A DNA stretch of 64,000 nucleotides from a virus (Duplodnaviria; Caudoviricetes): IMG/VR virus record IMGVR_UViG_3300028048_000059, positions 64,001 through 128,000 of that record; one strand, given 5' to 3'. Below the pieces are notes generated by a model that made no database searches, was not told where the DNA came from, and was given only the letters and a program-made list of their open reading frames with translations. This document shows positions 969 to 63,681 of the stretch, piece by piece. The stretch's first letter is position 1; every line of letters begins with the position of its first letter. A program made the translations under genes and the position numbers.

Positions 969-1996
969 TAACCTTCACCGCCTCCGGTTTTATTAAAACC
1001 GAAAGTATTTGATTTAAAGAAATCAATATAGTATTTTTCTAAATCACTTAGTTGCTCTTTTTCACAATAAATAATTGGTTCAATTGCCCAGTTCCAAAAA
1101 CCAGTTTGCCAAATGGCGTGATGAACGGCTTGGTCAGAAATTGTTTTAATTCCGATAGAACTTTTAAAGTGATCGATAATACGTTTTTTAATATTGGTAC
1201 TTTTACCAATATAGCATTTCCCGCTATCAATGTTGGTTATTTTATAAATGCCAGGTTTTTCTTCTATACCGACTCGTTTAAAAGTTTCATCAATATAAGG
1301 TTTTACATATTCTGCCCAGACCAATTTATTAATAATGTCAGGATGTTGTACTTTTTGTGAGACAGTCGTTACTAGAAAATTAATGTCTTCCTTGTACTCA
1401 TCTGGCACTTGAATTGTATAGAACAAACGTTCTTGCTGTTCTTTTTCATATTGTTGCAACGGGAGCAAAAGTCCTTCAAAACGTTTTTGTTGTTCCTGCG
1501 TTTCTGCAATTATTGCTGTTTGGCTCGCCGTCGCGGCCGCAATTGTTTGTTCCATTTCTTCTTGTGCATGATCTTTTTTATCTTGATATTCTTGTAACAA
1601 TTGCTTATATTTGAATTCAAGATTTTGTTGTTTTTCACGCCACAATTGATCAAAGGTTGTATCTAATTCTGACTGTCGTAATTGTTTTTGATTAATAAAA
1701 TAAGTGTCTAAATCACTAGTTTTACGATTTAATTCTTCTCGATACTTTTTTTGTACTTCAAGAATTTTATTATTATATTGCTCTATTTGCTCAGTTAAAG
1801 CAGTTTTTTCTTTGACTAATTGATTTGTTTCATAACAAATTGATTGCAGACGATCTTCATTGGTTTTTATTTCGGCTTGCAATTTACGCAATCCATCTCT
1901 ATTAATGGATTGCTTTTTATTTAATTTATAAATTAGGCAAATAATAATAATGGCGAGTATTAATATGGCCGCCATCCATAGCATCTGTACTTGCAT
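968..1996 (-). CDS. membrane-anchored coiled-coil protein with C-terminal GIY-YIG nuclease domain
   Basis: N-terminal hydrophobic helix, long Q/E/K heptad region, then PGIYKITN...CYIGKS...R...H...E...FGFN. Confidence 0.75.
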   Translation of the reverse strand: MQVQMLWMAAILILAIIIICLIYKLNKKQSINRDGLRKLQAEIKTNEDRLQSICYETNQLVKEKTALTEQIEQYNNKILEVQKKYREELNRKTSDLDTYFINQKQLRQSELDTTFDQLWREKQQNLEFKYKQLLQEYQDKKDHAQEEMEQTIAAATASQTAIIAETQEQQKRFEGLLLPLQQYEKEQQERLFYTIQVPDEYKEDINFLVTTVSQKVQHPDIINKLVWAEYVKPYIDETFKRVGIEEKPGIYKITNIDSGKCYIGKSTNIKKRIIDHFKSSIGIKTISDQAVHHAIWQTGFWNWAIEPIIYCEKEQLSDLEKYYIDFFKSNTFGFNKTGGGEG

Positions 1997-2028
1997 TTAC
2001 ATCACAACCACTCCTTTATTTATAATTT

Positions 2029-2057
2029 ATTATATCATGATTTTTAAAAAAAGTCAA
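2029..2057 (-). promoter_or_regulatory. sigma-A promoter
   Basis: TTGACT-17 nt-TATAAT with extended -10 TG. Confidence 0.85.
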
Positions 2058-2059
2058 AT

Positions 2060-2090
2060 AAAAAAAATAAGCGGGCAATTATGCCCGCTT
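2060..2090 (-). terminator. Rho-independent terminator after nrd operon
   Basis: AAGCGGGCA-TAAT-TGCCCGCTT followed by a U-run. Confidence 0.8.
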
Positions 2091-2816: not shown

Positions 2817-2862
2817 ATAATGCTCCTTTTATCATTTATAAAAATCATAATTAAGAACGTTC

Positions 2863-5799: not shown

Positions 5800-5810
5800 A
5801 ACTACCAACC

Positions 5811-6248: not shown

Positions 6249-7315
6249 CTCCCTCGTTGTTTTAAATCGTTAAAATTTTGATCGAATAAGTCCTTAGCAG
6301 AAGGGAAAAATTTCAACAATTCATCACGCTCATCACGTATGAAATTTTGTTTTTTCTTTTTTGGTATTCGATCATTTATTGTTTTATCTTGTTTTGCGGT
6401 CACACTAATGTTACCGCATATTTCTATTGTTTTAGATAGCGTAGCTATTGGATTCTTAAATCCAATATCTGGTTCGATATATTTAATTTTTATTGGTATT
6501 CCCTGCGCCCAAAAGCTGTAAAGAAGATTTAATTTATAAATTAAATCTTTATAATAAATTTGATTTGTTTTAAATGAGCCGCCTAGCGGCAAACATACCT
6601 TAGAGGTTTGCGTGATATCTGCTAAGAAAAGATGCTTATATTTTTTAAACATATAATGCGACTCTTCTAATGGAATATCTAAATCTAGAATAATTGTATT
6701 CGTTCGAGCAAAACGCTGATATTCACGTAATGTGAAATATTGTCCTAATGTATTGCAAATCACAGGGTGAATGCGGACAATACTGGATGGCGCGCGCATA
6801 CTAATTTCGTCTAATGTTTTTTGCCAGTCATCGTAAAAAAATTGTTTATCAAATAAAAAAATTCTTTTATTTTTTCTAATGGCTGGTATTGGCAATCGAT
6901 TGTCTCCTGCATAATTGCGATAATAACTATCATCTAACAAATGCTCTAATGTATTTATTTTTACATTGGTTTTAAATTTTTCTCTTAAAAAATCTACATA
7001 AATGTTGGGTTTAGGCAGAGTATAATCAATTACCGTATTATCAAAAGGAATATAATCTTTTGTAAAGGCGGAGCCGCCATAGATCACATTGTGGGCCCGC
7101 AAGTAGTTTTCTGGCACCTGCGGCCGCGCCTCTTTTTCGCTGAAAAAATAAATTTTTTCATATTGATTTAATTCTACTTCATCTAAGGATAGAAGGCGAC
7201 AAAACTGTTGCTCTTCTACCCTATAATAAGTAGCTAATTTCATAATCTCTACGTTGGGGATAAGCATAGAGTTGGTTTCTGTGGTTAACAAATCATAATC
7301 AACTAAACCTATCAT
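6236..7315 (-). CDS. hypothetical protein resembling phage radical-SAM-associated proteins but lacking CxxxCxxC
   Basis: IGLVDYD...PNVEIMKLATYY...YGGSAF N-terminus. Confidence 0.5.
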   Translation of the reverse strand: MIGLVDYDLLTTETNSMLIPNVEIMKLATYYRVEEQQFCRLLSLDEVELNQYEKIYFFSEKEARPQVPENYLRAHNVIYGGSAFTKDYIPFDNTVIDYTLPKPNIYVDFLREKFKTNVKINTLEHLLDDSYYRNYAGDNRLPIPAIRKNKRIFLFDKQFFYDDWQKTLDEISMRAPSSIVRIHPVICNTLGQYFTLREYQRFARTNTIILDLDIPLEESHYMFKKYKHLFLADITQTSKVCLPLGGSFKTNQIYYKDLIYKLNLLYSFWAQGIPIKIKYIEPDIGFKNPIATLSKTIEICGNISVTAKQDKTINDRIPKKKKQNFIRDERDELLKFFPSAKDLFDQNFNDLKQRGRWNI

Positions 7316-7316
7316 A

Positions 7317-10300
7317 CTAATCCTCCTCTTGCATTCTCTCAAATCGGAATGTTAAATTACCGTATTCATCCACTGATGTAATTTTTGAGATAATCGGATA
7401 AACTGATTGCTTGGTTTTCTTTGGAACAAAGTCTTGTCCTCTTCTGATTCCTTGAACCATTAATAATGTCCCGCGTTTAAACCAACTGCTTTCAACTACG
7501 TGTTTGACACCTTCGGCATCACGCTGTGAAATTTGTTTATCGTATAACGCAAATTGATTTTTATAAATCTTAACATTTACAACACCGGTTGGTGTTAATA
7601 ATGTGATTGTATTTCTCACCTTATCTTTATCAATTACGGTTCCAATCAAATGGTGCATTTTATAAATATTAATTTCCTGACCATCTTTTGACATAAAACT
7701 ATAATCGACCTCTGGCGTTTCACTTAATGAGAAGAAATCATCATAATCATTCATCGCCTTAATCAATTCATGATCATGATAATAGAATGAGATACTTTCC
7801 ATTTCCCAATGACTAATATTACCGTCTGCATATTTTTCCACTAATTCATCATAAAGAGATTTGTTTAATTTATTTAACATTTCATCTTTATGTTCTTTTA
7901 AATACGCGCGCATTGGCTCCATCGCCTTTTTATATGTATTATCCCAAACTCTCTGCTGAATTAATGAGCCATCTTCCGTTAAATCCAAAGAGAAATGTTT
8001 ATCAATAAAACCGATGGCGGCCGCATTTAATGTGTAATAAATACTTTTTTTACGTGTTTTTAAGAATTTATTGAAATAAAATAGCTGCGCATAAAATTTC
8101 ATATCATCAGGAATTAATTCCCTTTCAATTAATGCCGCCATATTTTGTAGGGTTAATCTTTGCTTTTTATCTGTGATTGAATCCAAATAATCGTGCATAA
8201 TTTGTTCACGACTTTTATTTTCTACGGAATCGAATGCACCAGATTTGATTAAATTTAAAGTTTGTAATTTATTCGTGTTATTTTTTCTCAAAAAATCTTG
8301 CAATGATTCATACGGACGATTTTCAATAATTTGATAAATCAATGATGGAGAAATTCGTGAAATACCGCGCAATCCATATGTAATTACATTTTCTTTTACA
8401 TTCGGAGTAAAAGTAAAATTTGATTCATTAACATTCGGTGGTAAAATTGTAATACCACGTTTTTGAAAATTACTAATTGCGGTTGAAATTTTTCCATAAT
8501 CAGTATTGCGGACTTTCTTTTTCTTCTCATTATCTTCATTATCGTCATCATCATCTTCATTATCATCATCTGTATCTTCATATTGGAACTCATTGCCGCC
8601 ACTATTTGTAATAAGACATGCACAATTCCAATAGATAACTGGATAATATGTTGTAAGAACAAGAATTTGAATGGCAATAAAACTATATGCAAGAGCATGA
8701 GGTTCTGCAAAAGCATATGATAGTTGTGGTAGAATTGCGCTCCACCAGACATATTCACCAAGCTCTTTTCTTGGACATTGACTTACAAACTTTTCTTTTA
8801 AATCTGCAATTTTATTCAATTGCTTCTTTGAACATACTTTTCTTGCCGCATTCGCTTCTGCAAGTGTAAAATGTCCAAGTTTTGGTTCCATACACAGCAA
8901 CATTAATTTTTCTTGTGTAGTTGGCACACCATCAACTGGAAGATAATATGGTTCAAGAATTTTAATTTCTTCATCAGTTAGACCCCAAGATTTGCATTCT
9001 TTATACCATAATTGAATGTTATTTTTAAAACGCACATATTTATCAATTGGACGTTCTTCGCCTTTCTCGCCAGCTAATCGAGTCAGGGCATTTGCCATCA
9101 TTAATTGTAATGGATTTTGTGGCAGAATAGAACGAATCGCTTGGCCGCCAACCGGTGTATCGAATTGAAACAAATCAACGACTTGTCCAGATGCTAGTGT
9201 GTCCCAAATTTTTGGGTCTTTAATATTTAAAACATTTGGATGTAGATATTTGTTATAAATTTCTCTTAATGTATTACATTCACTAAAATATCCATCTTTT
9301 TTTAATAGATTAATAGCATTTATAAGTTTATCACAAATTTCTGTAACCAAGAAGTCGAATTTTGTGCCACCTAATGCTTCTTCATCATGAAGTGAAAACT
9401 GCGTAATTAAATCTCCATTTGGGCTGCGCATAAATGCGCTTGTTACCCAAGGGTCCTCATTATATAAAATAACACCAGATGCGTGCTGACTTCTTTTATT
9501 AATCAGTCCATCAATACCATAAATAATATCAATTAAACCCGGATATCGATTAACTTCATTAATAAATTGTTGAGACGGTTTAATACCTTTTTCTTCATTG
9601 CCATACATTAAATCATTTAAGCTATAAAGGAATCCACGCTCCTGCGGCACAAGACTAGCAATGTATTGTGAAGTATCTACGTCAATTCCCTCTGGATAAT
9701 CGTCGCTGCGATAACCTCTACATGCAGTTAAAATTGCACTTTTTGTACCTTCTGTACCAAAAGTTGCTACTTGAATTAGATTTGTTTCACCATATAATTC
9801 ACGAATTCTTTTAAAGATTAATGGACGTTTTGACGGCGCTAAGTCAATATCAATATCCTTTATATACCCTCGGTTTCCCGATATTTATTAGGGGAATAGA
9901 CTATCTCTTTACAAATATTCTTATTTGTAACTGGCACTACGATATGGTGCTTATCTCCATATCTCTCGGAAGATTTTATTCTTCACAGTTAGTCGTTACA
10001 CCTTCTAAATAATAATTATTTAGCTTGGCACGGTATTGCCATGTTCTTTCGAATTTAGGTTTTTACCGTTAGCACATCATTTTATGATGCACACCGTTAA
10101 GCACGTTCACCAGTTTTTACTTGCCCAACTATTTTAGGCAATTCCATTCTTTCTTTGTTCAAAAAACGCCATTCTGGTAATGACCATTCAATTGGGTCCA
10201 ATTGTGTAATGCCCAATAATTGATTAGATAAATATGAGACGCTACTGCCGCGCCCCGGTCCAACGATACTGCCGCAATCCCAAAATAAGTCAATGAAATG

Positions 10301-11494
10301 TTGGAATGTGTTAAAATATTCAAACAGACAGTTACCAAGTTTTTGTCCAATCGTTTTAATAATATCCGCTTCTGTCTCTAATCGTTGTACATAATTAATT
10401 TTTTTATCAAGACCAAGCTCGACCATTTTATTCCAACATTCATTTACCCAATATCTTTCCTGCACTTCATAAGAATTAAATAATGAGCTTAAAACAGGGT
10501 ATTCAGTTAAGAATTGTTCTTTTTTGGGATAATTTTTAACTTCTACCCTTGGGATAATCGGATTTCTAAAAATATCATAAGATTGAATCTTATTATAAAT
10601 TTCCATTGAATTATTACATAACTCAATAAAAATTTTTTCATCATACGATTCTTTTAAATAAGACCAAGCTTCTTCATTATCCATTAAATGAGCGAACTCA
10701 TAAAAAGAATCAATTTCTCTTTCCCCTTCTTTTGAATTTAAATATGCTTTATGTACGTACCTGTCTTTCTTTTGAAGATAGTGTGCATCTGTACCATAAA
10801 TCATTTTAACTCCAAAAGCTTTTGCTAAACCAACAACTCTTTTATTGCAATATATTTGTTCTTTATTTGTGCTTGGCGCCACTTCTACATAAAAATCTTC
10901 TCCAAAAACATCTTTACAAAACAGAAAATATTCATTAATTTTTTCTCTAATGGCGGCCACATCATAGTCATTTCCTGCTTGCTCCGCTTCGCGTAACGCA
11001 AGTAGTAGCTGCGCATCTTCACCGGCAATACAAGCTGTCGTTGCAATTATATGCCCAGGATTACTTTTAACAACATTAGAAAGTTCGCTTTTCAGAGTCG
11101 GCACGCGCTCCATTCCTCTATCATAATAAGAATTATACCAACTATTCGAAGATAATTCACATAATTGATGAAAACCAATAGTATCTTTTGCAATGAGGAT
11201 GAAGTGATAATATTTTTGTTTTTTGTCTCGTGTCTCTGTTAAGTAAATTTCATTTCCGATACCGCATTTAAAAGTCTTTGGAATTTTCCCATCTTGCTTT
11301 AATTGCTTTTCTAATTTTAACCACTCTACGCTTCCAGACAAGCACTCATGATCTGTTAAACAAATACCACTCATACCAAGTTCATACGCAGTTAAAATTA
11401 AGTCTTTTGGGCGATTAATCGAATCAAGTAGCCTAATGTTACTATAATGCGAGTGAGCATGTGTCTCTAATCTTTGTATATTATTAACTCCCAC
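7317..11494 (-). CDS. dnaE: DNA polymerase III alpha subunit (family C), two exons (10136-11494 and 7317-9857)
   Basis: PHP HAHSHYS, TDH, GTDAHY; GPGRGS; ELP|DIDID restored on splicing; SQHASG, KFDFL, YAFAEPHALAY. Confidence 0.93.
9858..10135 (-). mobile_element. ORF-less group I intron in dnaE (278 nt)
   Basis: UUGCCU| pairs with GGGCAA; R = TAACGACTA, S = GAGATAGTC; ends in G before GAT ATT GAT. Confidence 0.92.
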
Positions 11495-14443: not shown

Positions 14444-16433
14444 TTAGCTCTCCTCTCCGAACCAATTCCGCCAATCAATCGGATCTTCTACCGCAGAAGA
14501 AAATAAATCAAGTGGAGTATTAATTGGTTCATTCTCTGACGTTGTAATAAATAAGTCTTGTCTATCTCCATTGCCCAAATTCAGTCTAGTCCAAATACGG
14601 ACATTCTTGTATCTACCGCGTCTATTTTTATATACATCAATTACATGCGTAGGCTTAAAATCTACATCATCAATATATTTAGCATCAATTAAGCCCATTC
14701 TCGCGGCCTTACGCCATTCAGTTGCGTAACTATTCCAATTCTTTTGAGTGATTTTTGAAATAACAAATCCGATGTCGCATTTATCTGCAACTGCTTTACT
14801 AGAACGAATACTCATTTCATTTTTAAATTCTCCATCATCACCCATGGCGTTCATATTTACCTGAGTAGCAGAGAAAATAAAAAGGCCATAATCTTTTGCC
14901 AGTTGCTTTAATTGATTCGCCATCATCATGAGGATGGTTGCTTCATTCAAACTATTTTTTGAAAATTGATTTAACATACTCGCTGTCGAATGCACATAAT
15001 CAAAGCGCGTACTCCTTTTTTTCAAAAGGCGCTGACTATCTCTTACTATAATTATTTATAGGATACCTTTTCGAGTTGCGTGTCAATAGCAACCCTACTT
15101 CCCCGATCCGGGAATAGTCGATACAGGTTTAAGCATCTTTCCAAATTTTTTGTTGTCGAATATCATTAATTGTACTTCTTGATACCCCGTATAATTCACC
15201 TATTTCTCTGTATGTTAATTTGCCTTCTTTAATTAATTCTTTTCCTTTTTGTTTATTATAAAGATGCTTATTTCCCACGGGATTACCATGCGTTTAAACG
15301 TTTAGGTTTCCCCGTTAGCCATTATAAAATGACCCCGCTGACACACGGAAAAGTATTACACAGTCCTTTACCCTATGCGGGTTGAACACAAACCTAACAT
15401 TGTCCACAGTAGCATATTTTTTAATTGTGGCTTCTACATTAACTAAATTAGGATCACTAATTTCTTCAATATAAAAATAACCACTATATTCAGTCATAAT
15501 TCGAGCCGCAAATTTTACTCGCTCTAATTCACCTAATTCATATTTACCAGTCAATATGTGGCCTTCATCGACTCCTGATAAATATGCTAACATGATAGTT
15601 TGAAGTTCTTCCTTATCCATCTCAGTTACAATAAACAATACTTTTCTTGGTTTACGTTCTTGCCCTTGCGCATCAAGCTCTTCAATAAAAGTATGTAATT
15701 GATGTGAATAGCGAATCGGATATGCTAATCTACAAGCGTCAAAAACTGCCGTTCTCGTTTTACCTGAACCGCTACTTGCTGATTTTAGAAAAAAGCAACC
15801 TTGCCGCGCGCCTCTACAAACACTACTAAAAATCTTACCCTCTAAGCTTGGTCCAATATTTGGTGTGCGTTGTAATTCCTCAATTAAATCAAATACTCCA
15901 TCTGCTGGATTTTGTTTACTGCGGCCGCCCTTCAAAAATTCATTTCTAATAATATTATATTTACCTTCAACACTATTTAAAATATCTTCTAATGAGCTTT
16001 CTTCAAAGTGTTGCTGAATACGAGTCTCTTCTAATGGGTCTGTGACTTTTTCACTAGCAATATAAAAATCACTAACATCATACCCATCTTTGATTAAGCG
16101 TCGTAATAGAGAATATTTTTTTAATCTTATATAATAAAGATTAAAATTGCTTATTTCTGCAAATTCATAAGCAATTTTTAGAAATTCTAACCCATTATTT
16201 TGATTATATATTAGCGCGCTATTTTCATGTTTTTCAATCTCTTGATCTACTTCAATCGGAGTTAATTTTGTTGCACCTTCATTATATAATTTTTGAATAA
16301 TAATAAAACAAATTCGCGCAACTTTATTATCAAAATCCATAGGATAGATATCTGTGTATTCAATTAATAATAATGGATTTATCATCAAACATCCAATAAT
16401 TTGACGATAGGCCATTTTATCAGATAAAACCAT
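14444..16433 (-). CDS. dnaB: DnaB-like replicative helicase, two exons (15385-16433 and 14444-15005)
   Basis: Walker A ASSGSGKT, TEM, Walker B VFFDY restored on splicing, ATQVN, ADKCD, YKNRRG. Confidence 0.88.
15006..15384 (-). mobile_element. group I intron in dnaB (~379 nt) with homing endonuclease remnant
   Basis: GCTAACGG...AATCCCGTG core, R = ATCGACTA, S = GAGATAGTC; GTG TT|...G|C TTT GAT; 5' junction could be off by a base. Confidence 0.85.
15129..15278 (-). pseudogene. C-terminal HTH remnant of a homing endonuclease inside the dnaB intron
   Basis: Frame ...KELIKEGKLTYREIGELYGVSRSTINDIRQQKIWKDA* enclosed by the stem TAAGCATCTTT/AAAGATGCTTA. Confidence 0.7.
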
Positions 16434-19178: not shown

Positions 19179-20069
19179 TTATTCCCAACTATACTTACTA
19201 GATTCGGCCGCAGGCTTGGCCGCAGGCTTATTTGTAGCATTGATTTGAAGCTGCTCGATATTGGCCTTGCGTACATTGAATGCCTTCTTAATATCCGCCG
19301 GATCATATGCAAACTCTTCTTCAAACGGCTCATCAGAACCACGAGTAATAATTAGTTCGCGGGCTGTACGTGTAGAAGTTTCTTCAACTTCCTCACCCCA
19401 AGAAGAATTTGAAGCAGTGCGCTTTTCTTCCACAGAAGTATAACGAATATGACCGCCAGCATGCACTGTATCATTCACATTCCAATTCCTCTGAACGAAA
19501 TCAATGTAATCTTGCTGCTCAACGACAAACTCAATAACATCAAGCTTACCGCCGTATTGTACAACGCCACCCTTTACAATGAAACGTCCAGTTGGGTCAC
19601 CTTCACGATCAAGTTCATCGTGCATATCCATAATGAAAATATCGATATCAAAGATCGCTGTGTCGGAAATATTTCCACCATTAGAAATGAATGGTGTATT
19701 AATCTGCCATCCACTGATAAGCTGACCACTACGTGTTACAAAATTATTTTCACGCACGTTCGCACTGGTTAGACTGATACGAGACGCGGCCGCTTCGCCT
19801 ACTTCCTGCACCGTCTTCATTTGCTTCATTTCTTGGATACAACGCCAACCAGGATGAGCCTTACCAGTTGATGTAGTCGGTGTCGCAAAAATGCTTACTG
19901 GAATTTCGCTTGTCTCTTCTCGACCACTATATGTATGAGTGGTTCGAATAGTAAAATTCACACTTTCATACTGAGACCCGGTTTTAAGAGTTCCATTACG
20001 GAAAGTACAATCAAGAAGCTTACCTACAATCTTTAACTTATTTGTTGCTTGTTCACCAATATTCTTCAT
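19179..20069 (-). CDS. putative single-stranded DNA-binding protein (two OB-like halves)
   Basis: Beta-rich sequence, flexible tail ending in aromatic/acidic YSWE, adjacent to the Sak4-like ATPase. Confidence 0.5.
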   Translation of the reverse strand: MKNIGEQATNKLKIVGKLLDCTFRNGTLKTGSQYESVNFTIRTTHTYSGREETSEIPVSIFATPTTSTGKAHPGWRCIQEMKQMKTVQEVGEAAASRISLTSANVRENNFVTRSGQLISGWQINTPFISNGGNISDTAIFDIDIFIMDMHDELDREGDPTGRFIVKGGVVQYGGKLDVIEFVVEQQDYIDFVQRNWNVNDTVHAGGHIRYTSVEEKRTASNSSWGEEVEETSTRTARELIITRGSDEPFEEEFAYDPADIKKAFNVRKANIEQLQINATNKPAAKPAAESSKYSWE

Positions 20070-21017: not shown

Positions 21018-23396
21018 TTACATAATTTCAATAGATGCTGTATTATTACGAGCATCAATGATGCGTACACCAGTTGTTGTCCTATTTTGCACAGGTACGT
21101 CTTCAATATTTAAAAGGACAGACTTTGTTCCTGTTGCAACAAATAAAGTATGCTGGTCTTCTGGAATAACACGTGCGGCCGCCACATAGTTGTTGTCTTT
21201 CAATAACATAATCGAGGAGCCTTTAACGCATCGTGACGTCATCGTGAAATCAGATAGTGGAGTAATTTTTCCATATCCTTCCGTAGAAATGGTCAGCAAT
21301 CCCTTGTAAGAAAATGCTTTTTTAACTAGTGTTGTTGCTGCAACAAACTCAGTTTCTTTTAGCTTAATAGCTTTTACTCCTTTTGTGTTACGCCCAGTGG
21401 CATTGATTTCGATTAAATTATAATAATTATAATTGCCACTGTTGCTAATAATAAAGATGGCGTCTTCATCGGTGGATGATAGAAAGGCATTGACTAGTGT
21501 ATCGCCGTCTTCAAGTTTTACCGCGGCGGCACCTTTTGTGGCGCGCACATTGTATTCAGAGATATAGCTTTTCTTGATATATCCTTTCTTACTTACGGTT
21601 ACTAAATTACGATAAGATTGGAATGTGGTGCCATCAATTAAGAATAGAACTTTTTCATCATTCTTCAAAGCAAGTAGTTCATAAATACTGTAATCTACTT
21701 CATACTCTAAGTCACTTAATGAAAAATTATACATGCGGCCGCCATTGGTCAACGCATTAACAATACTCAAATTTGTTGCATACAATGTATTAATTAGGTT
21801 TGCATTTTTTGGTGGCTTTAAATTAGTGCCTTTGCGTCCACGTTTTCCACCTTGTAGCTCTTCTTTTTTAATAATACGAATCATATTATTATCAAAAAGG
21901 AGAACGCCAACCTTTTCTTCAATGATTTCGGGTTTTTCTTCTTCACTTTCATGCAGATCAATAATTTTGGTTCTACGTTCATCGCCAAATTTGTCTGCAA
22001 TTTCTTGTAAAATTTTAATTAGTTCAGCGTCCAAAGCGGTGCTATCTGTTAATAGGTGCTGATACCAAGCAATTTTCTCATCAAGTTCTTTTGCCTCATT
22101 ATTCAATTTTACAATGTCTAATTTGGTTAAAGAAGACAATTTCATTGCAAGGATTGCTTTTGCCTGATCTTCATTAAAGCCATGCGTATTAATTAATTTG
22201 TTTGCGGCTTCTGTTGGATTCGCGGAGCTTCTAATTAATGCTACAACTTCATCAATAATTGAATAGGCTTTAATCAAACCATCTACAATATTCTTGCGGG
22301 CTAATGCTTTATCAAGGTCAAATTGGACTTCATTGTGCTTGCATTTTCTAATATGGGTGATATATGCTCTGCATGCATCTGCCCACCCAAAAATTTTAGG
22401 AAAACGTCCTTGATCAAGCAAAATCATATTAATAGAATACCAATATTCTAATGATGTATCTTTATATAATTTTTCAATGATGCGTTTAACATTTACTCCT
22501 TTTGATAAATAAATTCTAATATCGGCCTCTTTTTTTGTATGATCAACGACTTTCTCAATACCGTAATTTTCATTTTCACTAACAATTGCTGCCAATTGAT
22601 CGATAATAGTGTTTGTAAAAACACTGTATGGTAAATTAGTGGCTTGAATCATATTTTGATCAGGGTCATATTTTAATGTTGCTCTAATTCTAATAGATTC
22701 CCCTTTTCCATTTTTGAGCGATTGCTTTACAGCGGCAGCATTGATGATTGTGCCGCCACATGGAAAATCTGGCGAACAATAAATTTCATCGAAAGAAGCA
22801 TTTGAATTTTTAATGAGAGTAATTAAAGCATTATTAACCTCTTTAAGATTAAAAGTTGGTACGCTTGTAGCAAGTGCGACAGCAATGCCAGAGCATCCAT
22901 TCACGATATTCCAAAAGCCGATTGATGGGAATACACTAGGAATCATTTCTGTGTCATCATAATTTGAATAATATTCATCGCCAATCGCGTTTTTCTTTAA
23001 ACCAGCAAATAGAATATCAGAAATTTCCGCCGCCTTCATTTCAACATAACGCGCGGCCGCATGACTATCAGGTGATGATGGATTGCCATAGTTACCTTGT
23101 ACTGCTTCAAGCGGATAACGATAAGACCATGGCCTTGCAGCACGAATAAAAGTGTCATACATCGCTGCATCGCCATGGACATAAGCGAGACTCATTGCTG
23201 AGGCTACAGACTTCTGTGCCTTCTGGTACTTATCTTTATAAGTTAGCTTATTTGAATATTGTGCATACAAGCCTTGCCGCAAACCAATCTTTAAAAAATC
23301 CCTTACATCGGGCAACGCTCTCTCCTGTGCGACCGAAGCTCCATATTTGAGGAAAGCTGTTTCAACTGTCTGTTGAAAATCTACATTACGTATCAT
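21018..23396 (-). CDS. gyrA: type IIA topoisomerase A subunit (GyrA/ParC-like)
   Basis: RALPDVRD, HGD, QGNYG, catalytic AAARY, NGCSGIAV, PDFPCG, C-terminal pinwheel repeats. Confidence 0.9.
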   Translation of the reverse strand: MIRNVDFQQTVETAFLKYGASVAQERALPDVRDFLKIGLRQGLYAQYSNKLTYKDKYQKAQKSVASAMSLAYVHGDAAMYDTFIRAARPWSYRYPLEAVQGNYGNPSSPDSHAAARYVEMKAAEISDILFAGLKKNAIGDEYYSNYDDTEMIPSVFPSIGFWNIVNGCSGIAVALATSVPTFNLKEVNNALITLIKNSNASFDEIYCSPDFPCGGTIINAAAVKQSLKNGKGESIRIRATLKYDPDQNMIQATNLPYSVFTNTIIDQLAAIVSENENYGIEKVVDHTKKEADIRIYLSKGVNVKRIIEKLYKDTSLEYWYSINMILLDQGRFPKIFGWADACRAYITHIRKCKHNEVQFDLDKALARKNIVDGLIKAYSIIDEVVALIRSSANPTEAANKLINTHGFNEDQAKAILAMKLSSLTKLDIVKLNNEAKELDEKIAWYQHLLTDSTALDAELIKILQEIADKFGDERRTKIIDLHESEEEKPEIIEEKVGVLLFDNNMIRIIKKEELQGGKRGRKGTNLKPPKNANLINTLYATNLSIVNALTNGGRMYNFSLSDLEYEVDYSIYELLALKNDEKVLFLIDGTTFQSYRNLVTVSKKGYIKKSYISEYNVRATKGAAAVKLEDGDTLVNAFLSSTDEDAIFIISNSGNYNYYNLIEINATGRNTKGVKAIKLKETEFVAATTLVKKAFSYKGLLTISTEGYGKITPLSDFTMTSRCVKGSSIMLLKDNNYVAAARVIPEDQHTLFVATGTKSVLLNIEDVPVQNRTTTGVRIIDARNNTASIEIM

Positions 23397-36673: not shown

Positions 36674-37561
36674 TTATATTTCATAATTTGTTACCACGAT
36701 TTCTCTTGTCTTGTTGCCGCCATCATTTACTGTATGTGTACAATGAGAATATGCAGGATTGTTGATGTCATGCACAAATAGATTGCCTTCATAACCATCT
36801 ATCCATTGCTCTAAAATAGTATTGGTTTTGCCATGATGTTCAATAACATTCGATAATGCCCATTTAAACCCGAGGCTATGCGCATTATCTAAATAATTTA
36901 GAAGTTCTTTCTCATCATACTCATCCCATTTCTGCCATACTTCTAGCAATCCATTATTATATACTTGATTAGTAATAAGATATGGCGGGTCGAAATACAA
37001 TAGCGTATTTTTTGGGTTGAATTTTATTAAATCAATTTGTGAAAAACTTGCATTATGTAATTCAACACCTTGAATCAGATTGTAAAATTTTTCAATGCTG
37101 TTGCGCTGTCTTGCAGAAAAATTAGAGTAACCGCGGCCAAATCCTGCATTAAATTGTAGGTTTTTGTTAAAACGCATTGTAAAATGGAAGCTAAATCTAG
37201 TTAAAGTATATAAATCCAATGGTGTATGATATTCAGAAATGTTATTATATGCATCACGATACGCTAAGAACCCTTCTTCATTTTCTTTGGATAATTCAAA
37301 TTCATCGATACGTTTTTCAATAAAATTTAGAATTTCTGAAAATGAATATTGTTGAAAGGCTTGCATGATTTCAATTAAAAAACTATTGGCATCAACTGCA
37401 ATTTTTTTATTTGCTGTCGCATTAATAGATACATCGCATCCACCACAAAAGAAATCAATTAATGTATCAATTTTTTGTGGAAATAGCGGCATTAATTGTT
37501 TCATAATTTGATATTTATTACCAACCCAATTAAATGGAGATTTTACATAAATCGCACTCAT
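36674..37561 (-). CDS. N6-adenine DNA methyltransferase (D12/Dam class)
   Basis: SPFNWVGNK, DFFCGG, FN..FG, YFDPPY, ALSN, EIVVTNY. Confidence 0.88.
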   Translation of the reverse strand: MSAIYVKSPFNWVGNKYQIMKQLMPLFPQKIDTLIDFFCGGCDVSINATANKKIAVDANSFLIEIMQAFQQYSFSEILNFIEKRIDEFELSKENEEGFLAYRDAYNNISEYHTPLDLYTLTRFSFHFTMRFNKNLQFNAGFGRGYSNFSARQRNSIEKFYNLIQGVELHNASFSQIDLIKFNPKNTLLYFDPPYLITNQVYNNGLLEVWQKWDEYDEKELLNYLDNAHSLGFKWALSNVIEHHGKTNTILEQWIDGYEGNLFVHDINNPAYSHCTHTVNDGGNKTREIVVTNYEI

Positions 37562-40693: not shown

Positions 40694-41230
40694 TTGTGTG
40701 ATAAATTTATTTACTTTTTCTTCCAATTGATTTATATCGCCATCATTAATGATGCAATAATCAAAAAAGGCGTTATCAAGCTCTGTTTCACTTATGTGTG
40801 TAAGTTGAGTATAAGTCATTAATGGATTTTCATATATACTACCATCTGGATTAAGGCGAGTGATGCGCACAGTAGTTACGTCATCGTTGTAACGCTCGAT
40901 TGCGGTTTTCTCGCTAAAAAAACGCCAGTCTGGAATAAGCGTATATGTGAAATCATTACTTGCGGCCGCCACAAACTCGCCAATAATGCGGCCCCAATAG
41001 AATTGATCGTATGTGCGCATCATGGTTGTCCCAATATATTGCAGAAGAGCGCGCCCATCTTTGTCTTTCTTTCCATCCCAATTATAAAAATCACGTGCAA
41101 ACCATTTAACTGGATCTGCAAAATGAATTGTTAAAACTTTTTCGCCGCGTTCTTCTAGTTGATTTTTCATTAGTGCGGCCGCGGCATCCTTTCCATGCTG
41201 GCTTTTTGCAGAAATTAAAATAGTTTTCAT
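40679..41230 (-). CDS. deoxynucleoside monophosphate kinase
   Basis: SAKSQHGKD, HFADPVK, R.LLQYIGT, PDWRF..E, HISETELD. Confidence 0.85.
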   Translation of the reverse strand: MKTILISAKSQHGKDAAAALMKNQLEERGEKVLTIHFADPVKWFARDFYNWDGKKDKDGRALLQYIGTTMMRTYDQFYWGRIIGEFVAAASNDFTYTLIPDWRFFSEKTAIERYNDDVTTVRITRLNPDGSIYENPLMTYTQLTHISETELDNAFFDYCIINDGDINQLEEKVNKFITQLTSK

Positions 41231-42286: not shown

Positions 42287-42487
42287 TTACTTATCTTCCA
42301 ACTCGGGTAGACCAGCCACACTTGTTAATAGACTAAGAATGCCAGCTAGGATGGACGCAGATGCAACCATTACCCAATTTACTTCGGAAATTACTGCGCT
42401 TGTGCCAATTGTGGCTACGGCAGTTTGTGCTACGGTTTTAATGGCGCGAACACCTGCGGCCGCTAACCAACGTTTAAAATCGGTCAT
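42287..42487 (-). CDS. holin (r1t-like)
   Basis: AAGVRAIKTVAQTA...W....SASILAGILSLLTSVAGLPE. Confidence 0.85.
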   Translation of the reverse strand: MTDFKRWLAAAGVRAIKTVAQTAVATIGTSAVISEVNWVMVASASILAGILSLLTSVAGLPELEDK

Positions 42488-48544: not shown

Positions 48545-49126
48545 GAAAATACCCGTCTTAATAAAATCATTGCGGCCTTCGCCATACTTGTATTATTCTT
48601 CTAACATATTCAGTCACGTTGCAGATAGAGGCTGAGCAACAGGTGATCGGCCTGCACTTCTCTACCCTTTGAACCAACGAGGAGGTTGCTTACTCCCAAA
48701 TTTCACCCGAACCATTCAGCAAATAACGCAAAATGCGCAACTTATTATACTACTTTCTCGCTGCTTTGGGCTACTTTCACCCCAAACCTTACTTATAGAC
48801 CATTTCTGGCTTTCAACAGCAAAAACATCTTATGGATTTTCTTGAGTTTGATACAGTCTCCGGCTAAACCCTTATCAAGATTCAGTCTACGCTTTTAACG
48901 CCTGACTTCTATTATGATGCCGTAAGGAATGGTACTTTTGTTAGCGAATAACCAAGCGCATGCTCATAACATTAGAAATTTCTTCCTATCGCTCATCATC
49001 GCTGATTTTGCGGCCGCGTTAAGTAAGTATCCCAACCTAACGTATGGCTGTTTTGCGAGCATCCTAAGCAGTGTGGTTAGCACTTCTGCACTTAGTTCAA
49101 TCATTTTATTAAGACGAGTATTTTCA
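48545..49126 (-). ncRNA. large ornate ncRNA, ROOL-like (~582 nt)
   Basis: 28-bp terminal inverted repeat closing a 580-nt ORF-free region, internal GCCATAC/GTATGGC pairing, own sigma-A promoter, phage tRNA neighbourhood. Confidence 0.65.
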
Positions 49127-49176: not shown

Positions 49177-49400
49177 CTCTTTTTTGTAATAAATTTCATC
49201 TCAATTTTAGTTCCCCCTGGAATATCAAAATCAGAGAAATAATCTGGTGGAAGCTCACAAATAATACTGGAACCTTCGATATTGAATCTATTACAATACT
49301 TTTCAAAACCGTTGCCAATAAGAGTTTTCATTAGCCACTTGTGAATAGATTTAATAAACTCAGTCTTAGTGGCGGCCGCAGTAAGAACTTTCTTTTCCAT
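49173..49400 (-). CDS. hypothetical protein
   Basis: ORF behind its own promoter. Confidence 0.6.
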   Translation of the reverse strand: MEKKVLTAAATKTEFIKSIHKWLMKTLIGNGFEKYCNRFNIEGSSIICELPPDYFSDFDIPGGTKIEMKFITKKS

Positions 49401-57130: not shown

Positions 57131-58798
57131 TTACATCACTCCAACATATTTGCCGCTAATCCAGCCAATTTGTCCAAGAATACTAATAGCATACCATCCA
57201 TTATCAGTAATTAGCGGTTCACCCTGTGCGTTAACTAGTGGATCTAACTTTGTATTCTTTGCCAGTGTAGTTAAAATAGCATACGATGCACTATTACCAG
57301 CGCGTACATTTACTGAGCCAGTCGTTTTATATCCATTAATTACTGGAATTGGCTCATCCTTTGGCTCGTCTGGCTCTGGCTCGCGATCTGCAATGGCAGA
57401 CATAAGCGCGAGATGCGATTTTTCACCATAAATTCCATCTGCATTTAGGCCATATTTGCCTTGGAATTTTTTAACTGCTTCAAATGTGGCATTACCAAAA
57501 TCACCGTCTTCAACCAAATTAGTACCAATTAATTCATTTAACAAGTGCTGCAATTCTTTAACGTCATCGCCTTTCAATCCCTTTTTAAGAAGGCGCGCGC
57601 CGAGTTGTTGTGTTGCAACACTATTCACTTCTATATATTTAAGTCCCGGAATTCTATACCAATGTAACCAATTGCGGTCCTTTAATTTTGTTATTACGCA
57701 TCCGTAATTGAAGCCGCGTTCTTCTACGACTTCGCCATTACCAATATATACCCCTACGTGGCCAGAATAACGCACTGCCACACCAGGTAATTCTGGAATA
57801 GTATCAATAGTGCCCCAATCTAAGCCTTGCTTTTTTGCATATTCAAATAAATCGTTCGCACTTTTATCTGGCATACCATTGCTAGCATATTTTGTGGTGA
57901 ATTTTGGAGTGGATTGACCAATTGATTCAATTACTCCTTCGCCGCCATTTGTCCAAAAGTATCCTTTTAGAAGACCGCAACAGTCTGAGCATACCTTATG
58001 TTCACTCACATGCTTTTTATAAGTGGCCATGCGGCCAGATGTATAGTGCGTTGAATATTGACTCTTTTTAGAATTTAGTAAAGAAGTGGTGCATGGCTGC
58101 ACATATGTCCCATACCAATATGGTTGTCCGACAAACTTTTTACAAAATTCTACAAAATTGATATTAGTAAATTCTGCCATAGTTTCTTCCTCCTTTTCTA
58201 AAACCGACGTGTCAGTAAACCACGACAAGGATTTTGTTCCATTTAAAACATTTAAATCTACCTGTTCTTTGCAACCGGCTAATTTGCCCTTATCCGTATA
58301 TTGCCATAACTCACATGGATAAATTGGTTTATATTTGGTATTGATCGCACCATTGTTTAATCCGTAACGCGGAATCCAAATAAAATCAAAATCATCTAAT
58401 AAGGACTCAATATATGAGTATTTATCTTGCGGTATATATAAACCAATTTTCTTACACCCAAGCACTCGTAATTCATTTAAAAACGCTTCTGTAACATTTA
58501 ATACAGTGGTTCGTGTTTGAGTGCTATGTTCTATGTCTGCAACGTAGAAAAGCGGCCGCAGTCCATTTTTTCGTGCTTGTTGCACAAAATATTGTGCTTC
58601 TTTACGCGCGCCACTAGATGTGCCACTTTTTACATAGTGGTATACACCATATGGTATGCCGCATTCAGCAGCATATTGCGCATATTTATTATCGGCATCA
58701 AGACCAACGCTCGCGCGGAAAATAACTAAATCTAGTTCTTTCCGCGCAAGTTCCCAGTCAATTTTGCCTTCATAATGACTAATATCGGCTATTTTCAT
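57131..58798 (-). CDS. multi-domain endolysin: GH25 muramidase + NlpC/P60-like peptidase + PG-binding + SH3
   Basis: DISHYEG, YHY, DIE, WQYTD; DCCGL...HVGVYIG; GDDVKELQ...DGDFG..T..AVK.FQ...DGIYG; VNVR...GWISGKY. Confidence 0.88.
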   Translation of the reverse strand: MKIADISHYEGKIDWELARKELDLVIFRASVGLDADNKYAQYAAECGIPYGVYHYVKSGTSSGARKEAQYFVQQARKNGLRPLFYVADIEHSTQTRTTVLNVTEAFLNELRVLGCKKIGLYIPQDKYSYIESLLDDFDFIWIPRYGLNNGAINTKYKPIYPCELWQYTDKGKLAGCKEQVDLNVLNGTKSLSWFTDTSVLEKEEETMAEFTNINFVEFCKKFVGQPYWYGTYVQPCTTSLLNSKKSQYSTHYTSGRMATYKKHVSEHKVCSDCCGLLKGYFWTNGGEGVIESIGQSTPKFTTKYASNGMPDKSANDLFEYAKKQGLDWGTIDTIPELPGVAVRYSGHVGVYIGNGEVVEERGFNYGCVITKLKDRNWLHWYRIPGLKYIEVNSVATQQLGARLLKKGLKGDDVKELQHLLNELIGTNLVEDGDFGNATFEAVKKFQGKYGLNADGIYGEKSHLALMSAIADREPEPDEPKDEPIPVINGYKTTGSVNVRAGNSASYAILTTLAKNTKLDPLVNAQGEPLITDNGWYAISILGQIGWISGKYVGVM

Positions 58799-58810
58799 TG
58801 GCCTTTCTCC

Positions 58811-60829: not shown

Positions 60830-60840
60830 ATTATCCCTCC

Positions 60841-61341
60841 TTAACCTGATGTTACAGTAGTATTACCGTTGTTGTCAACGGAAAAATGAAATGTAATTGC
60901 TGGCTCTGCGCCATTTGGTACAGTTATGTCAAAACTTTTTCCATTTGTAAGAGTGACGCCAGTAATATAAACATTTGTTCCATCCCAACTCGCAGACGTG
61001 GAAGCGCCGCCTGATGGGCTTATATTGATAGCTTTTTCTACCCAACCGCTAACCGCGGCGGCATACATAAAACTTGACCGCGTGACCGAAGCATGCGGTA
61101 CTAATGAAACACCTGACGTATCTGTTGTGCTGGTGGTTGCATTGGTAAAAGTCCCGGTAGCCGTTTTATCAGTAAGATCGCCGCCTTTAAAGGTGGGTGT
61201 TGCGCTTTTTGCAGATAAATTTAAAACAATCGGTTTATCCACATATTGTGTAGATGTGGCTAATGTAACCGCTGTCCCAGATTGCTTTGTTAATTGAATA
61301 TTGCCAGTCCATTTACCATCTTGATTAACTAGTGTCGCCAT
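60841..61341 (-). CDS. Thr/Ser-rich virion protein
   Basis: Composition; N-terminus resembles that of 61378-63681. Confidence 0.65.
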   Translation of the reverse strand: MATLVNQDGKWTGNIQLTKQSGTAVTLATSTQYVDKPIVLNLSAKSATPTFKGGDLTDKTATGTFTNATTSTTDTSGVSLVPHASVTRSSFMYAAAVSGWVEKAINISPSGGASTSASWDGTNVYITGVTLTNGKSFDITVPNGAEPAITFHFSVDNNGNTTVTSG

Positions 61342-61377
61342 TTAATCATCTCCTTTATCTCATCATATGAAGATAGA

Positions 61378-63681
61378 TTAAGTGGTTGTTATAGTATATG
61401 CACCAGCGTATGTCGCCATTGTACCTGTGATGAGCGCGCCATTGTTATCAAATGCAGTATAACCGCTTAAAATGTAGTTGGCTGGGGCGTTTGCGCCTTC
61501 TGCGTCTGGCACCAATTTTGCCAAACTAATTTTAGAAGCGGGGACATAACCTGGGTTGATGTATAAATAATCGCCAGAAATAAGAACTGGTGCGGTACTT
61601 GATATATCTGTATAGGTGGTGCCGCTAGTTGCGCTATTGGCGAAGGTAGCTTGGGAGATTGGAATATACATAACATCCGAAGCAGCAGCGCCGTAAGTAT
61701 ATTGATTGCCTGTGGCAACAGTATATTCCCCAGCATCGTTGCCGCCATAGCCGGACATGTTAACTTGCGCACTTGGACGCACAGTGCCAGTAACTGCGCT
61801 AGACGCCACAGCAATATAATAATTTCCAGAGCCTGGTTTAGTTTTAGTTGCTGTGCCCGCTTGCGCGATGTTTGTGTCTGAGTGCTTGCCTATTAACGGC
61901 TTTTGTGTCAATGCCCCGCTAATAGTGCCTTGAATGGTAATCTTGCGTAAAGCAACGTTAGTTGTGGCAGTGTTAGTATTTTTTGTACCTATACTATCAC
62001 TTACATATCCTTCATTTGTGATTGACGGTGCCGCTATTGTGGTAGTTACTGTTGCAGAAAAATTCCCTTGATTAGAATCATATTCCAACAGTGAATCAGT
62101 TATGGAAGTTGTTGCAGATCCAGATTGAATCGTGCCAACTTTAATTGGTACATAAGTCGCTGTTGCTGCGTTGCTACCAACACTTAATACAGTCGCAGTT
62201 GCTGTATTATAATTACTAGTCGTACCATAACCTGCCGTTGTAACAGTACCTGTAATATTAACATTACTTGATTTGGCCGCCGCATCAACACGAACATAAG
62301 CACCGCTGGTGGGCTTTGTCGTAGTAACTGCGCCACTTGCAGCATCAGTCCAAGTATCTGAACCTGGTTTTGCCGTGCGAGAAATAGCAGGAGTAACTTT
62401 TAGTGTGCCTGTATAACTTGCCCCTACTTCAACTTTATTCAATGTTTGTGTTGCTTCAACAGCACCGGTCTGCTTTGTGCCCTCAGAAGAACTAACATAG
62501 CCAGCAGTGCTAACAGTTGGCGCTGGCACAGTCCCAGTAATAGCAACAGTAAAGTTATCATTTGTGCTATCATAAATTGGGGTGCCATAAGTTAAAGTAG
62601 ATACATTACCACTCTTTACAGTACCGAGATCCACTGATGTTGAACCTGCACTTACCCAGCCATCTGTATAGCTAACCGTGCGGCCGCTTACTGTTGGAGT
62701 GGTTGTTGTAATTGGGATATAATAGATATCAGATTGCGCAGCGCCGACTGCTACTAAGTTTTGTGAAGAGACAAAATTACTTGTTGTACCATAACCAGAT
62801 TTTAAAACTTCTGGTATAAATGCAGCATTATCTATATTACTATTAGAGCGCACAGCAACATATACGCCGCTAGTAGGAGCAGTGGATGTGCTTGCGCCAC
62901 TTGCTGCATCAGTTACACCTGTAATACTAATTGTTTGTTTTGTTAACGTTGGCTTTCTAGTGGTTGCTGCTGAACCATCTGCTAGTCGAGCGGCTAATTG
63001 AATTGCGTCAACAGTTGTGGTTACAACCGCACCACCAGTATTAGCATTTTTCGTACCTTTTGTGCTAGAAATATAACCTGGAATATTAATCGTTGGCGCG
63101 CTTACATCAGCAGAACCAGTAATATTAAATTTAGAGGTAGAGCTATCATATGCATAAGACAATGAACTAATTGTCGCACTACCAGATGTAATTTCACCTG
63201 CTGCGCCAGAGTCCGCGGCTCCAATAACTAATGTGCGGGCCGCATTGTAGCCCTCTGTGATTGTAATTGTTTGATTTGAATCTGTCGGAACAATAGTTGA
63301 ACCAGACGCTATTGTGCTAGTTCCTTGTTGCATAATAGATTGGCTTACCTTACCAATTCCTATACTGTCAGATTCATTATATCCAGATGTTTCAACCCAC
63401 CCAGCCGTTGAAACATTTAAATTTGCACTAATATTATTAGTAGGATAATAATATCCACTTGTGGCGGTTCCCCAAGTCGGTGATTGTGTTGTATTCCCAG
63501 TAAGAGTAAGCTCTGCGGTCGCTGGGCGGGCCGTCAATTGTAATCTAATTTCTTTATCAATAAATTGGTCAGTTGTATTAAAGTCAATAACTGTACCGGT
63601 TTGTTGAGTCAAAGTATGGTCTAAAACAAATTTTCCGCCAACTACTGACATCTGACCAGTTGTACTTGCCATATTATTCAC
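61378..63681 (-). CDS. long Thr/Ser/Gly/Ala-rich virion fibre protein with internal repeats
   Basis: About three repeats of SG.A.I...YDS....F......AP.....GY.S...GTK...P.SG.YV.V...GYG...Y.PI; ILSGYTAFD.NG.LITGTM. Confidence 0.7.
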   Translation of the reverse strand: MNNMASTTGQMSVVGGKFVLDHTLTQQTGTVIDFNTTDQFIDKEIRLQLTARPATAELTLTGNTTQSPTWGTATSGYYYPTNNISANLNVSTAGWVETSGYNESDSIGIGKVSQSIMQQGTSTIASGSTIVPTDSNQTITITEGYNAARTLVIGAADSGAAGEITSGSATISSLSYAYDSSTSKFNITGSADVSAPTINIPGYISSTKGTKNANTGGAVVTTTVDAIQLAARLADGSAATTRKPTLTKQTISITGVTDAASGASTSTAPTSGVYVAVRSNSNIDNAAFIPEVLKSGYGTTSNFVSSQNLVAVGAAQSDIYYIPITTTTPTVSGRTVSYTDGWVSAGSTSVDLGTVKSGNVSTLTYGTPIYDSTNDNFTVAITGTVPAPTVSTAGYVSSSEGTKQTGAVEATQTLNKVEVGASYTGTLKVTPAISRTAKPGSDTWTDAASGAVTTTKPTSGAYVRVDAAAKSSNVNITGTVTTAGYGTTSNYNTATATVLSVGSNAATATYVPIKVGTIQSGSATTSITDSLLEYDSNQGNFSATVTTTIAAPSITNEGYVSDSIGTKNTNTATTNVALRKITIQGTISGALTQKPLIGKHSDTNIAQAGTATKTKPGSGNYYIAVASSAVTGTVRPSAQVNMSGYGGNDAGEYTVATGNQYTYGAAASDVMYIPISQATFANSATSGTTYTDISSTAPVLISGDYLYINPGYVPASKISLAKLVPDAEGANAPANYILSGYTAFDNNGALITGTMATYAGAYTITTT

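Follow-up and report, generated by a model that had tools for sequence, protein, structure and literature searches.

A highly iterated palindromic DNA word in a large AT-rich phage and its relatives

Introduction

Iterated palindromes of the HIP1 (highly iterated palindrome 1) type have been known for thirty years and have no agreed function. To our knowledge, nearly all work on iterated palindromes has dealt with cyanobacterial chromosomes that have cognate methylases. Here we describe a signature of this kind in phage DNA. The octamer GCGGCCGC, the NotI site (hereafter also NotI locus), occurs 18 times in a stretch of 64,000 nucleotides, the window, which covers bases 64001–128000 of a 157,489-bp IMG/VR virus record (IMGVR_UViG_3300028048_000059).

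In cyanobacteria, the highly iterated palindrome is HIP1, GCGATCGC (PMC5861425, PMC4390886). Like GCGGCCGC, it is an 8-base palindrome with GC flanks and a many-fold excess at the DNA level. Either word turns up in every reading frame as well as outside coding sequence, imposes itself on the encoded proteins and is better conserved among related genomes than the background; no function has been established for either. A comparison with HIP1, which an original prediction made from the window's sequence had drawn, is apt. The two systems also differ. GCGGCCGC is another word, without A or T, so that no GATC/Dam component is possible; its carrier is a phage, with a host that is probably a Gram-positive rumen or gut bacterium, rather than a bacterial chromosome; its density, ~1 per 4 kb, is lower; its carrier encodes no cognate cytosine methylase (the criterion of Elhai 2015); and its excess is largely built of the shorter words GCSGC (S, G or C) and GCGGCC.

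Three further systems bear comparison. GCsGC is the 'exceptional HIP' of Cyanothece PCC 7822, a genome that also has methylase genes specific for GCSGC in duplicate (Elhai 2015, PMC4390886); the identical pentamer is over-represented throughout the phage clade, which, however, lacks the cytosine methylase and adds an octamer and hexamer layer. Chi and Chi-like sites, enriched in phages lacking nuclease inhibitors, are likewise short, dispersed and over-represented, with density counting over position, and Firmicute Chi-like motifs have a GCGG core in common with the phage word. Chi is asymmetric and strand-oriented, whereas the phage word is palindromic; neither an orientation bias nor an excess in a host was found for it. 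Finally, AGTACT in Rak2-like jumbo phages and ACGGCCGT in Chloroflexota are single short palindromes that crowd a phage or host genome at the DNA level.

The HIP-like signature described here occurs in a phage that has no cytosine methylase and otherwise purges palindromes aggressively. Sister lineages carry a different word or none, which offers a small system, open to comparison and in principle to manipulation, for setting a 'selected signal' against a 'repair ratchet'.

Results

The octamer exceeds composition and codon expectations

All 18 coordinates reported for the window proved to be exact GCGGCCGC matches. The window has a GC content of 35.9% (31.5%–41.6% across 4-kb bins), and its dinucleotide shuffles held a mean of 0.25 octamers (s.d. 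0.48, maximum 2), in agreement with the earlier estimate that composition predicts well under one. Across the whole record (CheckV completeness 91%), there are 38 copies of GCGGCCGC and none of the reversed control word CGCCGGCG. Markov models, a check that had been proposed, gave whole-genome expectations of 0.9 (order 1), 1.9 (order 2) and 7.5 (order 3). Among all 65,536 octamers, the largest observed-minus-expected excess belongs to GCGGCCGC.

Codon-aware shuffles were applied to the whole genome, exchanging codons within genes and holding the 5 non-shuffled sites fixed. The 38 observed octamers compare with 8.3 ± 1.7 under synonymous shuffling (largest 14), 6.6 under codon permutation and 12.6 ± 2.3 (largest 19) when amino acids, codon usage and dinucleotides were all preserved; codon bias alone is thus insufficient, as had been argued. 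Restricted to called genes, the comparison is 32 against 3.3 ± 1.8 under the synonymous shuffle. The most demanding expectation came from a null conditioned on each codon plus the next two bases, which gave 21.0 ± 2.7 (z = 6.4). Because this null explains much of the octamer count, much of the signal sits in short words.

The rise in expectation from 8 to 21 favours a passive explanation, in which the octamer is a by-product of Ala-Ala(-Ala) codon pairs, of avoidance of GCWGC (W, A or T) or other restriction sites, or of G/C clustering, with no force acting on the octamer itself. The remaining gap between 21 ± 2.7 and 38 speaks against it. So does the behaviour of comparable words: of the palindromic octamers made of G and C alone, 16 in all, GCGGCCGC (38 copies) and GGCCGGCC (20) stand out, and each of the others has 0–5 copies. 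With these palindromes rare and the flanks of the sites not GC-rich, a general GC clustering or palindrome excess was ruled out.

The 20 copies of GGCCGGCC, the second GC-only palindrome, are clustered in a repeat array of a small-gene region outside the window (genome 638–17176 and 155970–156830). Near this cluster (genome 18728 and 19666) lie two spacer GCGGCCGC sites with TTAAC/GTTAA repeats on their flanks.

Sites occur in all frames, in spacers and in a structured RNA

The 18 sites of the window are as follows.

1533–1540: in a 342-aa gene on the minus strand; GCG-GCC-GCG (Ala-Ala-Ala)
7120–7127: GCG-CGG-CCG-CAG (Ala-Arg-Pro-Gln)
8017–8024: DnaE-like gene (Pol III alpha C-terminal part); Ala-Ala-Ala, with Asn-Glu-Ser-Ala or Asn-Asp-Ala-Ala in relatives
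15921–15928: GGC-GGC-CGC (Gly-Gly-Arg), with Gly-Gly-Lys or Gly-Gly-His in relatives
19786–19793: Ala-Ala-Ala, with Asp-x-Ala in relatives
21175–21182: GyrA-like topoisomerase gene; Ala-Ala-Ala, with Ala-Leu-Val in relatives
21735–21742: GyrA-like gene; GGC-GGC-CGC, with some relatives one base off (AGC-GGC-CGA)
23053–23060: GyrA-like gene; within a conserved His-Ala-Ala-Ala-Arg-Tyr
30175–30182: Ala-Ala-Ala
37920–37927: PhoH/PIN gene; CGC-GGC-CGC (Arg-Gly-Arg), common to relatives G002 and G005
38611–38618: PhoH/PIN gene; Ala-Ala-Ala, with Ser-Glu-Ala or Cys-Glu-Ala in relatives
40962–40969: deoxynucleoside monophosphate (dNMP)-kinase-like gene; Ala-Ala-Ala, with Lys-Ala-Thr and similar in relatives
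41175–41182: dNMP-kinase-like gene; Ala-Ala-Ala-Ala
42456–42463: r1t-type holin gene; Ala-Ala-Ala
49010–49017: in the ROOL RNA gene (48554–49119, minus strand), where two hairpins meet and consensus pairing is disrupted
49372–49379: Ala-Ala-Ala, close to the start of a 76-aa open reading frame (ORF)
58552–58559: GH25 endolysin gene; CTG-CGG-CCG-CTT (Leu-Arg-Pro-Leu)
62680–62687: 767-aa structural gene; AGC-GGC-CGC (Ser-Gly-Arg)

On the coding strand, these comprise 11 sites in the frame GCG-GCC-GCN (Ala-Ala-Ala), 4 in xGC-GGC-CGC (x-Gly-Arg), 2 in CGG-CCG-C (Arg-Pro) and the one in the ROOL RNA. Whole-genome placement of the 38 is similar in kind (20 Ala-Ala-Ala, 8 xGC-GGC-CGC, 5 CGG-CCG, 4 in spacers and 1 in the ROOL RNA), which bears out the earlier statement that the word occurs in several frames and in non-coding RNA.

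That 20 of the 38 sites encode Ala-Ala-Ala is a point in favour of the passive explanation. Called genes contain 46 Ala-Ala-Ala tripeptides, 21 of them spelled GCG-GCC-GCN, and Ala follows GCG-GCC in 20 of 50 cases compared with 25 of 296 after other Ala-Ala pairs (Fisher p = 1e-7). A protein-level cause was tried and rejected: Ala-Ala-Ala is 2.1-fold over a within-protein shuffle here and 1.5-fold in an octamer-poor relative, and since other homotripeptides behave alike, the protein effect is mild.

Sequences flanking GCGGCCGC are unrelated and ordinarily AT-rich, and the one trend in them is a preference for T/A at −1 and +1; the word is therefore not a dispersed repeat element of the kind of repetitive extragenic palindromes (REP) or miniature inverted-repeat transposable elements (MITE). 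Orthologous alignments at the sites show substitution, not insertion. Along genes, site positions are uniform, with no bias toward either end. Along the genome, the largest gap is 9.7 kb, compared with ~17 kb expected (p = 0.002), and the coefficient of variation of the spacing is 0.76, compared with 0.97 expected (p = 0.05).

Related phages carry the same or a sister word

The record belongs to a novel, large, AT-rich phage of rumen/gut type. A nucleotide-level search found no related isolate; the nearest relatives are contigs of uncultivated viruses and from metagenomes, several of them from rumen or gut by their record names, and none in IMG/VR and the metagenome collection is closer than ~70% nucleotide identity to the present genome (G000). 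Five relatives, G001 to G005, were retrieved whole.

G001: 180 kb; 29 GCGGCCGC, 11 GCCGCGGC
G002: 179 kb; 13 GCGGCCGC, 35 GCCGCGGC
G003: 164 kb; 1 GCGGCCGC, 5 GCCGCGGC
G004: 101 kb; 14 GCGGCCGC, 4 GCCGCGGC
G005: 82 kb; 6 GCGGCCGC, 16 GCCGCGGC

The dominant GC-only palindrome of G002 and G005 is GCCGCGGC, which comes with its own specific hexamer, GCCGCG. All six genomes favour GCS before GC in Ala-Ala pairs (59–77% versus a baseline of 28–44%), a preference absent from two bacterial samples of metagenome-assembled genomes (MAGs). In a tree of the GyrA-like protein, NotI-rich, GCCGCGGC-rich and poor clades are each well supported. A long branch places the present genome next to the poor clade, so its richness in GCGGCCGC is not simply inherited.

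Over long distances, GCGGCCGC sites turn over. In aligned orthologs from distant relatives (~50% amino-acid identity), only 0–2 of 8–13 sites fall in the same column, and most sites of the present genome lie where these relatives carry other residues. The few that are widely common encode His-Ala-Ala-Ala-Arg-Tyr (topoisomerase), Cys-Gly-Arg and Arg-Gly-Arg. At 23053, GCGGCCGC is present in 6 of 13 aligned sequences (the present genome and 5 relatives), and GCCGCGGC takes its place in the loci L006, L081 and L099. A comparison of gene content with octamer type returned only an HNH homing nuclease, a cREC_REC protein, tail/adsorption-like proteins and a holin, none of them a plausible reader of the word.

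Word usage differs sharply among the sister phages in other respects as well: G002 has 1028 CGCG, compared with 289–459 in the comparably sized G000, G001 and G003, and only 81 GATC, while G001 has only 194 GCGC.

The excess is built in layers from shorter words

The octamer excess consists of three layers: a clade-wide excess of GCSGC at the DNA level, seen in every frame and in spacers, an excess of the hexamer GCGGCC/GGCCGC in the present genome, and retention of the octamer itself. The original prediction had noted many GCGGC/GCCGC relatives of the octamer, and these are indeed abundant; it overlooked how much the shorter words contribute, GCSGC across the clade and GCGGCC in the present genome. 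GCSGC (GCGGC/GCCGC) is the top-ranked enriched pentamer, with 622 copies versus 327 under the synonymous and 426 under the dicodon null (z = 18 for the latter). GCGCGC, also named as a relative, shows no notable enrichment (53 versus 39–52).

The most depleted pentamer is GCWGC (198 versus 283 under the dicodon null). Where two Ala codons adjoin, the first ends in G or C in 72% of cases versus 39% overall. Both observations could suit a passive origin through GCWGC avoidance. Phage SPO1, a contrast case, shows that such avoidance can drive codon choice to GCS-GC: GCWGC occurs there 3 times in 50 kb, and 94% of its Ala-Ala pairs open with a codon ending in G or C. In the present genome, however, GCWGC depletion is limited to frame 0, where GCWGC is the synonymous alternative; GCAGC stands at 1.0–1.2-fold in frames 1 and 2. 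GCSGC is enriched 1.4–1.8-fold (dicodon null) in frames 0, 1 and 2, and spacers contain 82 GCSGC versus 26 GCWGC. With GCSGC up in all frames and in spacers and GCWGC down in frame 0 only, the pressure is for GCSGC and not against GCWGC, and the frame-resolved counts rule out avoidance of GCWGC (TseI/BbvI-type) restriction as the driver.

The hexamer GCGGCC/GGCCGC occurs 210 times versus 146 under the null of codon plus next two bases. Outside the octamer, the coding strand has 51 GCGGCC and 67 GGCCGC, and in genes the hexamer is there enriched 2.66-fold in either orientation. The octamer is the overlap of two opposed GCGGCC hexamers, and its excess in genes is ~10-fold: squaring the hexamer factor predicts 23 in-gene octamers, compared with 32 observed and 3.3 under the null.

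Octamers are retained between close relatives

Retention was assessed in two pairs, G001/G004 (82.7% nucleotide identity over 68 kb) and G002/G005 (89.2% over 53 kb), by the criterion that has been applied to HIP1 (Xu et al. 2018). NotI windows were identical in the partner in 11/20, 11/12, 5/5 and 5/6 cases, while the corresponding fraction for all octamers was 0.33–0.52. Sister octamers were conserved in 1/12, 1/8, 1/5, 1/4, 6/13, 3/7 and 3/5 cases. In orthologous genes, 11 of the 14 NotI loci in the union were common to both partners, compared with 32.5% for octamers in which at least 7 positions are G/C (p = 5e-4) and with 7 of 32 sister loci (GCCGCGGC plus GCCGCCGC/GCGGCGGC; p = 6e-4 versus the NotI loci). 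Four-fold degenerate third positions inside NotI were identical in 49 of 52 counts, which are two-directional, so that the effective n is about half; S-ending four-fold sites reached 54%, and GCS-before-GC positions outside octamers 71%.

What is retained is thus the octamer itself, and this holds also for the clade richer in GCCGCGGC than in GCGGCCGC. NotI loci outlast sister octamers with the same codon context, which is at odds with a passive by-product. Contradicted by both the frame-resolved counts and the retention, that explanation is unlikely, and we give it very little credence.

The genome otherwise purges palindromes

The enrichment of GCGGCCGC occurs in a genome under heavy anti-restriction pressure. 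Whole-genome counts are zero for CTGCAG, CTATAG, CTCGAG, GTCGAC and GTGCAC, one for AGGCCT and two each for CTTAAG, ACGCGT, GGTACC and GAGCTC, where 8–26 copies of each would be expected; CCWGG and GATC are low too. The most enriched palindromic hexamer is CGGCCG.

Separately, CTNNAG is depleted ~15-fold, with 36 copies in 157 kb versus ~546 from composition. Its member words (CTAAAG, CTGAAG, CTACAG, CTCCAG, CTGCAG, CTATAG and others) have 0–9 copies each versus 14–62 expected. The motif is similarly scarce in the loci L011, L012 and L084 (0.2–0.3 per kb) and at L017 (0.3 per kb), although G005, the genome to which L017 belongs, has 1.8 per kb as a whole; other relatives show no depletion (1.3–4.9 per kb). 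This loss looks like avoidance of restriction whose specificity changes from one host strain to another, be it CTNNAG as a whole or several CTxxAG enzymes.

Candidate methylases, readers and hosts

A profile search of the phage genome found no C5 or N4 cytosine methylase (PF00145, PF01555, PF05869), and neither Vsr, HhH-GPD nor uracil-DNA glycosylase (UDG)/T:G mismatch glycosylase was found there. The sole methylase is a Dam-family N6-adenine enzyme (window 36674–37561, minus strand; TIGR00571, 127 bits; DPPY motif), which is absent from all five relatives, the NotI-rich ones included. A phage-encoded cytosine methylase, Vsr or T:G glycosylase was accordingly rejected as the cause, and the earlier suggestion of a modification-driven process gains no support from the phage's own genes; nor is any reader of the word a phage-encoded cytosine methylase. 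Two other suggestions of the original prediction also lacked support. The winged helix-turn-helix at 20166, put forward as a binder, has only MarR-like Pfam hits, all below curated cut-offs, and nothing ties it to the sites; and a strand or orientation bias, the hallmark of Chi, was not found. That first interpretation is thus supported in part: in the DNA-level nature of the enrichment, in its occurrence in all frames, in spacers and in the ROOL RNA, in the retention of NotI sites between close relatives and in the comparison with HIP1.

In a sample of 401 genomes from one class, Clostridia, no excess of NotI or GCGGCC over the reversed control comparable to that of the phage was found. One outlier, the 34% GC Clostridia genome G347, has 136 GCGGCC versus 6 of the reversed control in its contigs C1–C4. 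It was rejected as a Chi-like or host signal: the coding strand reads GGC-GGC-Cnn (Gly-Gly-x) at most copies, and the strand pattern tracks gene orientation.

A host assignment through the xanthine/uracil permease was also tried. The permease gene lies at window 34147–35571 (minus strand) and is kept at 77–83% across all six phage genomes. It matches two Clostridia MAGs at 78–81%, on short contigs (L018 and L019; 1.7 and 7.6 kb), one of which, L018, matches phage DNA upstream of the permease gene as well; the MAGs themselves have 0–7 NotI per Mb. Given the short contigs and the conservation of the permease in all six phages, these matches are probably mis-binned phage fragments, and the assignment was dropped.

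Discussion

This phage and its clade carry GCGGCCGC as a genuine, highly iterated and HIP-like word of their DNA. Its excess is not a product of codon usage, of a repeat element or of restriction avoidance. The account of its origin towards which we lean, tentatively and at a shade less than an even chance, is that selection maintains GCGGCCGC as a DNA word which a putative protein reads on both strands. The word would be under selection as a recognition site, and the reader would be a two-fold symmetric or strand-indifferent protein acting on phage DNA, for which GCGGCCGC would serve as a dispersed 'handling' mark. It may attenuate a host end-processing nuclease in a Chi-like manner; alternatively, loading or condensation may take place at it, or it may identify the DNA as self. 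The density of such a mark would matter, not the exact positions of its sites.

Several observations weigh against this account. Codon plus next-dinucleotide context accounts for half of the octamers of the present genome (21/38), and the same null explains most of those in G001 (z = 2.2) and G004 (z = 1.1). Evenness of spacing is confined to the present genome; in G001, G002, G004 and G005 the spacing is random-like. The retention result comes from 14 loci, and from relatives rather than the present genome. Gene calls were made with a crude longest-ORF caller (211 ORFs, 89% coverage). No reader protein for GCGGCCGC was identified, and a host-driven process is possible.

The main process of that kind, and the main rival, is a methylation/repair ratchet, as in Elhai's model of HIP, in which a host cytosine methylase for GCSGC, CGGCCG or GCGGCCGC acts together with biased mismatch correction that turns near-cognate sequences into the word and repairs mutated copies back to it, so that the word builds up and seems conserved without having a function. 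Raised retention does not distinguish the two, being predicted alike by a selected signal and by a restoring repair process, whose bias would yield the same result. The coupling of GCsGC to a cognate methylase in Cyanothece PCC 7822 (PMC4390886) offers a precedent. The pentamer excess is clade-wide and present at every position of the word, spacing in the relatives is random, sites turn over at long distance, and sister clades prefer GCGGCCGC or GCCGCGGC, as differing host methylases might dictate. Against the ratchet, the phage has none of the C5/N4 cytosine methylases, Vsr, HhH-GPD or UDG sought, and its only methylase, of the Dam family, acts on adenine and is missing from the other five genomes. 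The host chromosome should also be marked, yet 0 of the 401 sampled Clostridia genomes show the excess. Single-base variants of the octamer are most enriched where GGCCGC is kept, not where the CGGCCG core is, and differences between close relatives reveal no single hot C-to-T position. On balance, we regard the ratchet as possible but doubtful.

A sub-case of the selected-word account is Chi-like mimicry proper, in which the host AddAB/RecBCD would recognize the hexamer or pentamer as its Chi-type sequence, and the phage would carry it in both orientations to guard linear ends. Firmicutes Chi-like motifs (AGCGG, GAAGCGG, GCGCGT) share a GCGG or GCGCG core (PMC8022716), the enriched unit is an asymmetric hexamer that is equal on both strands, and density rather than fixed positions would be needed. 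No orientation bias relative to genome arms or genes was found, however, A-GCGGC is the least enriched 5' extension, and the sampled Clostridia show no such hexamer excess, the lone outlier G347 being explained by GGC-GGC-C codon pairs. We consider this mimicry improbable.

Returning to selection on the word, a more specific version can be put forward as a speculation that is possible but, taken as a whole, somewhat unlikely. Through selection, the rumen/gut phage clade would keep a 'HIP' of its own at a set density, either the GC-only octamer or its hexamer half placed on both strands. The candidate reader would tame a host end-degrading nuclease, load a condensing or packaging factor, or mark self; sister phages would have been re-tuned to GCCGCGGC, and no cytosine methylase would be needed in the carrier. 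If a host nuclease or a phage DNA-handling protein does read the word, this would constitute a new kind of phage–host interface, and would also provide a simple sequence marker of the phage clade in metagenomes.

Other features of the phage genome

Genes recognized in the phage include a split DnaE-type polymerase, RecJ, a GyrA/GyrB-like topoisomerase, PhoH, a GH25/SH3 endolysin and the xanthine/uracil permease, and there are five tRNAs. The DnaE-type polymerase III alpha subunit is encoded in two ORFs, 7317–9650 and 10097–11494 (minus strand), separated by a 450-bp gap; one ORF comprises PHP and the N-terminal portion, while the NTPase, finger and HhH domains of the C-terminal side are in its counterpart. 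The ROOL RNA (Rfam RF03087, 283 bits), at window 48554–49119 on the minus strand, is full-length and lies in a tRNA-rich stretch.

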